Below are positions 27,414-62,325 of a stretch of 64,000 nt of DNA, piece by piece. Position numbers and translations under genes: made by a program. The notes beneath the pieces were generated by a model. It saw nothing but the letters and a program-made list of their open reading frames with translations, searched no databases and had not been told where the DNA came from. How positions within the stretch are numbered: position 1 is the stretch's first letter; each line of letters starts with the position of its first letter. The DNA comes from Candidatus Marinacidobacterales bacterium. GTDB taxonomy: Bacteria > Acidobacteriota > Vicinamibacteria > Marinacidobacterales > DATDRI01. The stretch is from assembly GCA_965226495.1 (NCBI GenBank), contig OZ245365.1, positions 4,544,001 through 4,608,000 of the forward strand, read 5' to 3'.

Positions 27414-27490
27414 TGCGGGGTGGAGCAGTCCGGTAGCTCGTTGGGCTCATAACCCAAAGGTCGCAGGTTCAAATCCTGCCCCCGCCACCA
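27414..27490 (+). tRNA. Initiator tRNA-Met(CAT)
   Basis: 77 nt cloverleaf; CAT anticodon; three G:C pairs in the anticodon stem; unpaired 1:72 (U:C); encoded CCA. Confidence 0.98.
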
Positions 27491-27560
27491 ACTTTTTCCG
27501 CACTCCCGAAAAAAATCTTATCCGGGCGAGTTTTCGCGACATCTCGCGACATTCCGGCTC
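27491..27560 (+). repeat. Island left-end module type A, copy 1
   Basis: actcccg.aaaaa...ccgggc.agttttcgcga.atctcgcgacattccggctc, repeated at 49002-49070. Confidence 0.8.
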
Positions 27561-27603
27561 CTACGAGGAAACTCGTTACCTTTGGTTACTTGGTCCGGAC
27601 CAA

Positions 27604-29441
27604 GGACGTGAGAAAAAATTGGGCTTTACTCACGTTGCAGCTATGTTGCAAGATTGCGGTCATGGGATACGTGACGAATCGTAGGAGGAAGTGGGGTAAG
27701 CGTGGGCGATAAGCAAGCGTCGTTGCCGGGCTTGCCCGTGCCTGGCGATGGTGGTGACGGCGATGAGTGCGAGCGGGCGGGAGAGGCTCGGTTGAAGGTG
27801 GTCGATCGCACGCAGATGCTGCTGCGGACGGTCGACGTGGAGCGGTTGATCCCCAGGGATCACCCAGCGCGTGCGATCTGGGAGTTCGTGGGGCAGCTGG
27901 ATCTTAGTCGCTATAGGGAGCAGGTCCGCTCGGTCGCCGGTGCCGCAGGCCGGCCTGCGTTTGACCCGCAGCTTCTGGTGAGCCTTTGGGTCTACAGCTA
28001 CAGCCGGGGAGAGAGTTCGGCCCGCGCGATTGAGCGACTGTGCGAGCATGAGCCGGGGTATCAATGGCTGACGGGGATGGAAGGCATCAGTGCGCACACG
28101 CTGTCGGACTTTCGGGTCGCGCATGCGGACGCCTTGCACGAGTTGTTTGTGCAAACGTTAGGGCTGCTGAGTGCGGAAGGATTGATCCCACTCGAGCGGG
28201 TCATGCAGGATGGGACGAAGGTGCGCGCGAACGCATCGTCGAATAGATTTCGCCGTAAGCCTCGAGTCGAGGCGTATCTGGAGCAGGCGCGTGAGGCGGT
28301 CGAGGCCCTCGAGGCACAGACGGAGGAGGAATCGAGCCGGCAGATGCAGGCAGCGCAGCAACGCGCCAAGCGTGAGAGACGCCAGCGGCTAGAATCAGCG
28401 TTGAAGGAATTCGACAAGCTGAAAGCGGCGAAAAGCCGCATGGAGCGCGTGAGCACGACCGACCCCGACGCGCGGGTGATGAAGCAAGCCGAGGGCGGTT
28501 CCGCGCCCAGCTACAACGTCCAGATCTTAACGGATGCCGCGCACGGCTTGATTGTCGACATCGATGCCACGCAGGCCGGCAGCGATTATCAGCAGCTGAC
28601 GCCGGCGATGGAACGGATCGAACAGACGCTGCAGCGCACGCCCGATCAGGTGGTCGTAGATGGGGGCTACATCAGTAGCCACAACATCGTGGAGATGGCG
28701 AAGCGCGGCATCGACCTCGTCGGCCCTGAGCCCCGGGGCAAGTCGGCAGAGGCCAATCGGCGCAAGTCCTATCAGCGCTACGGCATTATTTCGGCTTTCG
28801 AAGCATCGAGCTTTGTGCACGATGAGGCGAGCAACACGTACGTATGCCCGCAGGGCAAGCGTTTACGCTACGACGCAAAGTTCGAACGCGATGGCATGAT
28901 GCGCTATCGATACAAGGCCTCGGCGAAAGATTGCGACACGTGCTCGGTCAAGGAGTTCTGCTGTCCTCGCGCGTCGAGCGGTCGGTCGATCGAAAGGCTC
29001 GAACCCTTGCCGGAGATAGCCGCATTCCGGCAGAAGATGCAGACCGACGAAGCCAAGGCCATCTATAAGACACGCTCGCAGGTGGCCGAGTTTCCGAATC
29101 TTTGGATCAAAGCCAAGTTCGGCCTGCGGCAGTTTAGCGTGCGCGGAATCGCCAAAGTGCGCACCGAATCTCTCTGGGCCGCCCTCACCTACGATATCCA
29201 GCAGTGGATTCGCCTCCGATGGAGGCCGAACTTGGTATCGGAGCCCGTGCCGGCGTGAGCGCCACCCGACCGGCGATTGTGCACACGCAGCCGGGCGAGT
29301 TTCAGCGTGTCAGAAGGCATCATCGAAACTCCAGCGCCGATAACGGCGTGAATCCGCGGGATGCCGGCCCGATCGCCGTGATCGTCAGAACTGTGGACCA
29401 ACCATCCCCATCTCCCCGCAATCCGAATTTTTCTCACGTCC
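27604..29441 (+). mobile_element. IS1182-family insertion sequence
   Basis: TIRs GGACGTGAGAAAAAATTGGG / CCGAATTTTTCTCACGTCC; flanking duplication CAA (or CCAAG if the ends are set one base inward). Confidence 0.9.
27702..29258 (+). CDS. IS1182-family transposase
   Basis: LIPRDHPAR, GRPAFDP, SARAIERLC, TLSDFR, QDGTKVRANAS, STTDPDARVMK, DGGY, YKTRSQVAE. Confidence 0.95.
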   Translation: MGDKQASLPGLPVPGDGGDGDECERAGEARLKVVDRTQMLLRTVDVERLIPRDHPARAIWEFVGQLDLSRYREQVRSVAGAAGRPAFDPQLLVSLWVYSYSRGESSARAIERLCEHEPGYQWLTGMEGISAHTLSDFRVAHADALHELFVQTLGLLSAEGLIPLERVMQDGTKVRANASSNRFRRKPRVEAYLEQAREAVEALEAQTEEESSRQMQAAQQRAKRERRQRLESALKEFDKLKAAKSRMERVSTTDPDARVMKQAEGGSAPSYNVQILTDAAHGLIVDIDATQAGSDYQQLTPAMERIEQTLQRTPDQVVVDGGYISSHNIVEMAKRGIDLVGPEPRGKSAEANRRKSYQRYGIISAFEASSFVHDEASNTYVCPQGKRLRYDAKFERDGMMRYRYKASAKDCDTCSVKEFCCPRASSGRSIERLEPLPEIAAFRQKMQTDEAKAIYKTRSQVAEFPNLWIKAKFGLRQFSVRGIAKVRTESLWAALTYDIQQWIRLRWRPNLVSEPVPA

Positions 29442-29461
29442 CAAGCAGGTGGACTCGAGTA

Positions 29462-61805: not shown

Positions 61806-62189
61806 ATCTGTGCTGGCACCGAAGAAATCGTAAGGATCGCCGTCGCTAGCGCGAATTCCCTCGTCGTGTCCGCCGAGCACGGCGCGCTCGATCCTATCGC
61901 CACCGCAATCGGTGAAGATGAAATAGGAGGTCGTGCCGCGCAGATCGAGCGGTGTCCCCCAGTCGAGCGCCAGAGGGTCCGGATTGCCATCGCGGATGAC
62001 ATGAATCCACATATCGACGCCGTTGTCGCGCATGGCGCCCGGCAATACGAGATCAAACTTCTCCCGTTGAATCAGCTCGAGCCGCTCGGCGCGAGCGCGG
62101 GCCTCCTGGGCCCCGGCGTCGACGCCCACTAGAGCGGTGGTGATGTAGGCGAGTGTGAGAATTATCTTGGTTGCGAGATTGAGTGACAT
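61795..62189 (-). pseudogene. Second, convergent N-terminal fragment of the same family
   Basis: QREKFDLVLPGAMRDNGVDMWIHVIR...FIFTDCGGDRIERAVLG...DLRRF; begins with kinase-like MSLN. Confidence 0.7.
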
Positions 62190-62207
62190 GACCTCCCCTC
62201 TGAGCAT

Positions 62208-62238
62208 GAAAATAGTCCTGCACCGGCTGAAAAGTCAA
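62208..62238 (-). promoter_or_regulatory. Repeated sigma70-like promoter module, copy 11
   Basis: gaaaatagtcctgcaccggctgaaaagtcaa, 18 bp upstream of ATG 62189. Confidence 0.7.
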
Positions 62239-62272
62239 AGGATCTGCGGCAACCCGAGAGGGTCCATGAGCG

Positions 62273-62325
62273 ACACTGTGCGGGAATTGTGCGGGACCGG
62301 TGACAACTCAAAGCTACTGAGAGCA
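62273..62325 (+). repeat. Partial island right-end module
   Basis: acactgtgcgggaattgtgcgggaccggtgacaactcaaagctactgagagca. Confidence 0.85.

Follow-up and report, generated by a model that had tools for sequence, protein, structure and literature searches.

Site-specifically integrated elements can decay while keeping their attachment sites attL and attR, and further elements may then integrate beside them; such remnants are known as cis-mobilizable elements (CIMEs) and are treated in PMC5704250. Another described case is that of the Dehalococcoides islands at the tmRNA gene (ssrA), a single-copy small RNA gene at which the islands are reported to be mobilised site-specifically (PMC3146451). 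In this article we analyse a stretch of 64 kb, called the window hereafter, of the single-contig 6.34-Mb metagenome-assembled genome (MAG) G000, in which displaced 3' halves of the initiator tRNA gene (tRNA-fMet) bound an array of small gene units. The region is the proximal about 35 kb of a hypervariable island of 38-41 kb, located at the only initiator tRNA gene of this Marinacidobacterales-related genome. Positions are those of the window unless a genome (G) or locus (L) designation precedes them.

The array follows the same logic of decay and accretion as tandem accretions with CIMEs, for example those of ICESt1/ICESt3-related islands of Streptococcus thermophilus and of the tRNA-Lys islands of S. 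agalactiae. Unlike these examples, it comprises five to six att sites and small elements, it has no integrase, and no conjugation or mobilisation genes were seen; furthermore it targets the initiator tRNA of an uncultured acidobacterium, and mobilisation is only conjectural here. The ssrA arrays are alike in having a small RNA gene as target, whereas the target gene itself and the recombinase differ. Judged by these analogies, the array is to be regarded as the situation described for CIMEs and tandem accretion, i.e. as a known way of building islands and not as a new system.

A first-pass annotation of the same DNA had proposed a new, integron-like system, a proposal which could not be maintained in view of the match with CIMEs and tandem accretion (PMC5704250). 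The likeness to integrons is only a loose one, in that both pile up gene units at a site of recombination; the array has neither attI nor a common promoter, nor an IntI-type integrase within or beside it. Integron cassettes possess attC sites formed by imperfect inverted repeats, which recombine as folded single strands, whereas the units here end in direct copies of the tRNA half and in tandem direct arm repeats, and each of them has its own promoter-like site.

The array was probably built by tandem accretion, followed by integrase loss that left CIME-like remnants, invasion by insertion sequences (IS) and shuffling among kinase paralogs. Small elements would have integrated repeatedly and site-specifically at tRNA-fMet, their lambda-like, arm-dependent tyrosine integrase crossing over at the anticodon loop. 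Each integration would have restored the tRNA from the element's own copy and pushed the previous 45-nt half to the far end of the new element, beside its P arm, in which an 11-bp sequence is repeated in tandem about 126 nt from the crossover. The integrase genes, which this family carries tRNA-proximal behind a matching P' arm repeat, would all have been lost; the att-flanked CIME-like remnants left behind would then have been invaded by three IS elements, and homologous recombination among at least 103 kinase N-termini might have shuffled them. What the first-pass annotation called a promoter module would correspond to the conserved promoter and 5' ends of kinase paralogs. We infer the order of these events, and the loss by deletion, from sequence comparison. 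On this explanation the locus is a clear and well-resolved example, from an uncultured acidobacterium associated with sponges, of how accretion in tandem and the loss of integrases build an island.

Displaced halves of the initiator tRNA

The sole tRNA gene of the window is tRNA-Met(CAT) at 27414-27490 (ARAGORN, Rfam). Bacterial initiator tRNAs are marked by three G-C pairs closing the anticodon stem and by a mismatched first pair; there are three CAT tRNAs in the genome, and the three G-C pairs beside the anticodon loop together with the 1-72 mismatch were found only in this one. It is also known that integrases prefer sublocations such as anticodon loops. In agreement with the first-pass annotation, the 3' end of this gene recurs five times downstream, in three near-perfect copies of 45 nt, one interrupted copy and one partial copy:

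27414-27490, plus strand: tRNA-Met(CAT), initiator-type, equivalent to attL; the repeated segment is its 3' part from 27446 (CTCATAA)
32356-32400, plus strand: displaced tRNA 3' half, attR of unit 1, 44/45 identical
34334-34378, plus strand: displaced tRNA 3' half, 45/45 identical
43764-43808, plus strand: displaced tRNA 3' half followed by left-end module B, 45/45 identical
48919-49003, plus strand: degenerate half followed by left-end module A (49004-49073), first 17 nt and last about 19 nt kept
51906-51946, plus strand: partial degenerate half, only the 3' about 30 nt

Four of the half copies start with CTCATAA, which places the crossover at the anticodon loop, and the tRNA-fMet-anchored units bounded by displaced 3' halves that had been proposed are indeed present: the borders of the units are marked by directly repeated 3' ends of the target gene, and every copy lies downstream of the tRNA. 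BLAST with the tRNA revealed no further half copy in the whole 6.34-Mb genome, and since the halves are confined to the array the repeats are not due to chance. The halves near the tRNA are intact and the distal ones are degenerate, a gradient that is expected if new elements enter at the live tRNA.

In the half at 48919-49003 about 46 nt are inserted or replaced within the T arm. A GC-rich T-arm insertion of about 46 nt occupies the same position in two degenerate halves, one in the window (48936-48981) and one in G002 (L029 5736-5782).

Arm repeats at a fixed distance from the core

Tandem repeats accompany the halves. Scanning with the pattern TG[TC][GC]CG-N4-5-TG[TC][GC]CG gave six matches in the window, all on the plus strand (32230, 34462, 38614, 43627, 48793, 62277), against 33 in the other 6.27 Mb of the genome; those at 34462, 38614 and 43627 had been absent from the first-pass annotation. 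The arm repeats and the end modules are the following, one variant of the P arm being designated v1:

27491-27563, plus strand: left-end module A, 86% identical to 49004-49073; holds TCGCGACAT twice with a period of 10
32230-32251, plus strand: P-arm tandem repeat TGTGCGGGAAT TGTGCGGGAAC, 126 nt before the core; conserved module 32217-32345
32401-32492, plus strand: left-end module B, 99% identical to 43812-43900
34462-34484, plus strand: P'-type arm repeat, TTGTCCGCGTT twice, at +128 from the core
34552-34640, plus strand: partial copy of the P-arm v1 module without core
38614-38636, plus strand: P-arm repeat CTGTCCGCGTT TTGTCCGTGAA; the core here is degenerate (about 38740)
43627-43649, plus strand: P-arm repeat CTGTCCGAAA CTTGTCCGAAAA, 137 nt before the core
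48793-48814, plus strand: P-arm v1 tandem repeat, 126 nt before the core
59439-59487: single arm repeat and hairpin, upstream of the 956-aa kinase
62206-62298: promoter (minus strand) before a non-kinase open reading frame (ORF) of 206 aa; P-arm v1 repeat (plus strand) at 62277-62298, no core

The composite that ends both unit 1 and unit 4 (kinase start, promoter-like site, TGTGCGGGAA twice, half) was confirmed, as were the partial ends lacking the half at 34551, 59356-59478 and 62208-62325.

The spacing between arm and core is nearly constant: the distance from arm start to core is 126 nt at 32230 and 48793 and 137 nt at 43627, and in relatives ranging from the same genus to the same class it is 126-127 nt (G002, G006, G028 twice, G038) or 125 nt (G058). 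In the G002 orthologue of the 38614 module an fMet half follows at +126. When metagenome contigs were scanned for exact matches to the v1 repeat, at least 120 of them matched, of which 80 were analysed and 76 were evaluable rightward; among the matches listed, an fMet core stood at +120 to +130 from the v1 arm in 40 of these 76, and several of the listed contigs carry an integrase of the family described below just past the core or past the repeat. L109 and L167, for instance, have an integrase behind a v1 arm. The P' arm lies at +117 to +128, ahead of the integrase stop, and the repeat at 34462-34484 has the same position and sequence type as those beside intact integrases.

Both the fixed spacing of about 126 nt and the presence of like repeats beside intact integrases argue that the TGTGCGGGAA-type repeats behave as P/P' arm sites of a widespread tRNA-targeting, lambda-like tyrosine integrase family, to which the enzyme would bind; the arm site suggested by the first-pass annotation is upheld in this way. 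At least three arm-repeat types (TGTGCGGGAA, TGTCCGCG/TGTCCGTG and TGTCCGAAA) stand at the proper distance from separate cores in the window, which speaks for remnants of several different elements.

The att architecture of this family is thereby defined computationally as a pair of tandem 11-bp arms, placed about 126 nt to the left and to the right of a crossover in the anticodon loop, tRNA-fMet being the commonest target among the loci found; this architecture helps to delimit islands in MAGs and to spot remnants without integrase. Rfam gave nothing on the window beyond the tRNA, and the conserved 105-nt spacer between arm and core corresponds to no known RNA. A micro-ORF ending in the loop (TCA TAA), which seemed to be kept in family f1, was dropped on account of a 20-nt indel in the f2 copies.

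Integrases: none in the array, intact relatives elsewhere

The absence of a recognisable tyrosine or serine recombinase from the window, noticed in the first-pass annotation, was corroborated by Pfam profiles and tblastn: the 7 PF00589 and 5 PF00239 matches of the genome all lie outside, there is no serine recombinase near the window, and Pfam recognised no integration or transfer genes among the 30 window ORFs. Furthermore the genome G000 contains no tRNA-fMet-specific integrase, and among 55 genomes of the order searched by the arm pattern (present in 10) no intact integrase was found beside a v1 arm.

A tyrosine integrase beside the arm motif or a tRNA half was sought in the remainder of the genome, and an intact one was found at tRNA-Asp (G000 1345816-1346844). 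At attL of this element the order is tRNA-Asp, 72 nt, CTGTGCGGTGATTGTGCGGTTTTC, which is one of the 33 pattern matches outside the window, and the stop of the integrase gene; at attR an inward-reading 905-aa kinase with PD40 propeller is followed by CTGTGCAGTAATTGTGCAGTGAA, about 120 nt and a 50-nt tRNA-Asp half, which bounds the element 6.8 kb from tRNA-Asp. The integrase and the interior were not found in 12 relatives, in which the flanks were found. These resident arm repeats have TGTGCGG in common with the arms of the window, as well as the 11-bp period.

The tRNA-Asp integrase is 38-40% identical to integrases lying right behind tRNA-fMet in G026 and G018, and the gap between tRNA-fMet and integrase in G026 holds TTGTCCGTGCTTTGTCCGTG; no attR of this intact G026 element was found within 58 kb. 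In G001, which belongs to the genus of the window, tRNA-fMet has behind it a v1-type repeat and then the remnant of an integrase, 33 residues long. A profile built from three integrases retrieved 24 loci of the family in other phyla. A tRNA was present within 400 nt of the integrase stop in 15 of the 24, on the opposite strand in 12 and being tRNA-Met in 6. Of the tRNA-integrase gaps examined by script, 11/14 contained tandem 10-12-bp repeats, with TTGTCCGYG-type repeats in 6/14 (one of them by eye only), and the Nitrospira copies are nearly identical to those at 34462 and 38614. The integrase stop is separated from the tRNA end by about 70-80 nt plus the arm repeats in G026, in the resident tRNA-Asp element and in 12 further loci, and on metagenome contig L176 a v1-type arm occurs with a tRNA-Asp-adjacent integrase. 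A cognate integrase family for the fMet site thus exists, as represented by G026, G018, 6 of the 24 loci and, among the matches listed, metagenome contigs with arm, core and integrase.

The resident integrase was compared with lambda Int. Its AlphaFold model (14-sequence alignment, predicted local distance difference test score, pLDDT, 86.5) is predicted to be three-domain, and its best match in the PDB is full-length lambda Int (1z1g_A, E 3.6e-10, 349 columns); residues 5-49 are modelled as three strands and a helix (pLDDT 82-94), and Pfam on this N-terminus alone gave no match, including the arm domain. In both systems direct repeats flank the core at fixed distances. In contrast with lambda, sequence identity is about 16%, there is a single tandem arm pair at about -126/+120 nt, the target is a tRNA anticodon loop, and arm binding is predicted.

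Some neighbouring observations concern the same elements. At G026 L037 7400-7700 a degenerate tRNA-fMet half, a second arm repeat CTGCTACCATTCTGCTACC and a tRNA-Thr-like half at about the usual distance form two adjoining att sites that differ in specificity, with neither tRNA gene anywhere near. Right after the attR of the tRNA-Asp element (L058 8509-8694, G000 1352509-1352694) there is a sequence of about 185 nt, tens of copies of which occur at 92-98% identity in G001, G002 and G003; it resembles a miniature inverted-repeat transposable element. The adjacent 911 nt of an Amidohydro_2 gene (L058 8690-9600, G000 1352690-1353600) are 100% identical in G002 and 99% identical in G003, as compared with about 86% and about 73%, respectively, for core DNA, and this comparison points to a very recent exchange between genera.

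The island in relatives and in sequencing runs

The core flanks are 85-86% identical to G002, and synteny ends at the tRNA. It resumes at G000 4,612,370 (window 68,370) with respect to G002 and at 4,609,477 (window 65,477) with respect to G001, so the variable region reaches about 65.5-68.4 kb, beyond the end assigned to it in the first-pass annotation. The island measures about 38-41 kb in G000, 33 kb in G002 and 12.5 kb in G001, three congeneric genomes. G002 shares pieces of it at 88-95% identity in a different order and with other kinases, and it lacks the IS with rve transposase and the segment 34161-38609. These differences in unit order and content between congeneric genomes are in favour of the first-pass annotation.

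That the repeats represent an assembly artefact of the MAG is extremely improbable. It is true that G000 is a MAG, and that the assembled public contigs of runs X15, X17, X18 and X1, when aligned to 27001-47000, mostly end at the halves and also break at IS copies. The genome, on the other hand, is a single 6.34-Mb contig, the flanks of each half are different and unique, and comparable arrays were found in the independent genomes G002, G005, G006, G028, G038 and G058 and in metagenome contigs. The genome was detected in 20 runs of 13 studies, which comprise sponge, seawater and sediment metagenomes and coded organisms. One contig of run X18 joins 27603 to 29442, i.e. it is without the first IS. 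Two other joints were considered and set aside: the joint 27480->32371 (X15, one contig, side 21) was rejected as an excision because it lies inside the shared repeat, and the joint 34155->32226 proved to be a paralogous copy at 62203-62290 and not a junction; no trustworthy junction was seen in these assembled contigs.

Kinase genes and their promoter motif

At least 103 kinase N-termini are encoded in the genome. The kinase genes of the array and the kinase-type promoters listed with them are:

29462-32146, minus strand: cargo of unit 1, Hanks-type Ser/Thr kinase with PD40 beta-propeller, 894 aa
32166-32195, minus strand: sigma-70-like kinase promoter TTGACT-18-TATCTT, one copy of the genome-wide kinase promoter motif
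34125-34154, minus strand: kinase-type promoter before non-kinase ORFs
47735-48724, minus strand: kinase of unit 4, domain only, 329 aa
51490-51789, minus strand: kinase N-terminal fragment, promoter 51857-51889
56344-59214, minus strand: kinase with FGE-sulfatase domain, 956 aa, promoter 59354-59386

The first-pass annotation had taken the promoter as built into the element end. When the 33-nt motif TTGACTTTTCAGCCTGTGCAGGGCTATTTTCAC was searched genome-wide with up to 8 mismatches, 29 matches were obtained, 21 of them lying before a kinase ORF or fragment; the relatives of family f2 have another, shorter promoter region between arm module and kinase, and among the matches listed a kinase stands beside the arm in only 2 of 80 metagenome contigs. 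On these three grounds the promoter is taken to be part of the kinase paralogs rather than of the element end. What stands of the earlier claim is that the motif clusters here, 9 of the 29 matches being in the 64-kb window, and that three island copies (34154, 56224, 62238) precede non-kinase ORFs; the copies at 32195 and 34154 are recognised by a simple promoter scan. Nor does a kinase occupy the integrase slot, as had been supposed: in every intact example the integrase is at attL with its stop facing the tRNA, and the kinase, where there is one, is at attR beside the P arm.

The composites might alternatively stem mostly from segmental duplication or homologous recombination of kinase paralogs, one or two original att sites having been copied along without several integrations. 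The similarity of the unit 1 and unit 4 ends extends about 1 kb into the kinase at 78-90%, the left-end B copies are 95-99% identical over 89-152 nt, kinase-arm-half composites occur far from any tRNA-fMet gene in G018 (three times) and G026, and truncated beginnings of tRNA-Asp halves lie about 190-215 nt upstream of three further G000 kinases, all of which would suit such an origin. It is nevertheless quite improbable, since the arm-repeat types at proper distance from separate cores require several distinct elements; units 2 and 3 have no kinase composite in common, and the same arm-core geometry recurs in the metagenome contigs mentioned above, where kinases beside the arm are so rare.

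Arm repeats were rejected as a general feature upstream of kinases: a tandem 10-mer was present in 14 of 103 kinase upstream regions as compared with 112 of 2000 random ones, and only 4 were convincing, so that a link to att sites is lacking for most kinase paralogs. Likewise, kinases are not a universal cargo of the integrase family (0 of the 24 other-phyla loci within 10 kb, 2 of the 80 listed arm loci). The lineage-specific link between islands and kinase genes is modestly interesting.

The island kinases match the models of PD-T4-6, a single-gene anti-phage kinase, in PADLOC (E about 1e-92 to 1e-98) with the generic Hanks domain only (residues about 5-290). The kinase domain is alike, the PD40-propeller and FGE C-termini of the island fall outside those models, and the matches, being generic kinase-domain similarity, imply no defence function.

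Further observations touch the promoter motif. At 61587-62238 a 206-aa ORF without family match, at 62207, is fused to a kinase-type promoter and opens with kinase-like codons (MSLN), which looks like a kinase body replaced behind a kept start. At G000 209397-210503 (L219 98-1204, minus strand) a gene of 368 aa, whose product has an HNH endonuclease domain (PF01844, E 3e-5), ends inside a kinase-type promoter and has the same direction as the kinase; such genes are placed likewise at 1375022, 3426971 and 4658967, blastn gave at least 12 similar DNA copies in the genome, and they may be a mobile or homing family travelling with kinase promoters. Outside the tRNA island, window positions 1-7000 hold kinase genes and two kinase-type promoter matches (2447, 6816).

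Remnants or active cassettes

Several observations weigh against accretion followed by decay. The first-pass annotation had named decayed integrases in each unit as the sign of ordinary island decay; tblastn of the window with the G026, G018 and G005 integrases (word size 2, E<=5) found none, the best E being 0.6, so the loss is one that we infer and do not see, and such a clean loss from every unit is somewhat surprising. The arms of a single unit are unmatched, as in unit 1 with TCGCGACAT on the left and TGTGCGGGAA on the right, which makes the present units mosaics rather than single former elements. None of the G000/G002 breakpoints that were looked at coincides with a core; G002, for example, has nothing of G000 34161-38609 between promoter and P arm. 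A P arm and a tRNA-Thr half are embedded in the tRNA-Asp element just past the kinase stop codon. Across two families of the order the P-arm v1 module keeps an identity of 72-93% (91-93% in 4 of the 8 copies compared), and the first 150 nt of the adjoining kinase, where present, are only 60-69% identical, a conservation of the module that exceeds what a neutral fossil should keep. In G000 a kinase start stands beside attR at three tRNA specificities, fMet (two junctions plus one fragment), Asp and Thr, which plain decay does not explain, and a tRNA-half start was present in 8 of 103 kinase upstream regions versus 16 of 2000 random ones. Finally, G000 and G006 have in the same slot kinases that are only 39% identical, beside an arm module that is 93% identical. 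We attribute the conservation of the v1 module to its recent arrival from a conserved mobile family, and read the observations that plain decay leaves unexplained as the outcome of recombination at conserved kinase 5' ends beside a recently arrived att module.

The same data bear on the view that the units are living non-autonomous cassettes, that is CIMEs in active use, which an integrase supplied in trans by the resident tRNA-Asp enzyme or by an incoming tRNA-fMet element excises and re-integrates at the cores, with a kinase or another gene riding beside the P arm. Perfect 45-nt cores and both kinds of arm repeat are retained, and the conservation of the P-arm module is far higher than that of the sequences beside it. 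In G000 and G002 the units stand in different order and are more alike than the core DNA, and the v1-type arm of contig L176 is used by a tRNA-Asp-adjacent integrase. Kinase-only units of about 3.03-3.08 kb, flanked by tRNA and half, exist at tRNA-fMet in two genomes: the 3.08-kb unit of G006 consists of tRNA-fMet, kinase, promoter, v1 arm and half, and unit 1 of the window, 3,027 nt after subtraction of the IS, has the same layout. A tRNA-Thr unit of about 3.07 kb in G000 contains a broken kinase (longest ORF 360 aa) and CTTGCTACCACTTTGCTACCA, which starts 126 nt before the half. The swapped same-slot kinases would fit here as well. We still hold this view to be unlikely: neither a tRNA-fMet-specific integrase in the genome nor an intact integrase beside a v1 arm in the 55 genomes of the order searched by the arm pattern was found, the arms at the two unit ends are not cognate, two of the five halves are degenerate, and the breakpoints avoid the cores. 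The tRNA-Asp core moreover differs from the tRNA-fMet core, so that the resident integrase would need relaxed core specificity. Present-day mobilisation in trans may take place.

A related and similarly doubtful idea is that a tRNA-targeting element lineage of this order turned into a vehicle for receptor-type Ser/Thr kinases, the array being a working store of kinase and cargo cassettes. It would draw on the units of about 3 kb at fMet and Thr, the terminal kinase of the Asp element, the conserved P arm with swapped kinase and the shared TGTGCGG. With as little probability, trans-supplied integrases might swap such cassettes among co-resident symbionts and feed the repertoire of more than 100 kinases. 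If true, this would tie the Hanks-type kinase expansions of some Acidobacteriota to a specific mobile-element mechanism.

Other genes of the array

The transposases of the array belong to three IS elements (27702-29258, 35143-36453, 54867-56006). Together with the remaining cargo they are located as follows:

27604-29441, plus strand: IS insertion, DDE_Tnp_1-type transposase ORF 27702-29258
32678-34083, minus strand: cargo of unit 2, ORFs of 398 aa and 86 aa without family match, 93% identical to G002
35105-36503, plus strand: IS256-family element, transposase 35143-36453, 99.5% identical to the G001 and G003 copies
36700-38387, minus strand: sulfatase gene in two pieces
38953-43475, plus strand: cargo comprising a sigma-54 activator, two NmrA-like genes and a beta-carbonic anhydrase
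46057-46531, minus strand: HicA (truncated, 45 aa) and HicB-like toxin-antitoxin pair
54334-56045, plus strand: IS with rve transposase, ORF 54867-56006, missing at the orthologous place in G002

The IS256-family element at 35105-36503 is present in about ten copies in G000. The segment with the HicA/HicB-like pair (45972-46625) is 83-90% identical in G002, G003 and G005, in each case near the genome's own tRNA-fMet array.

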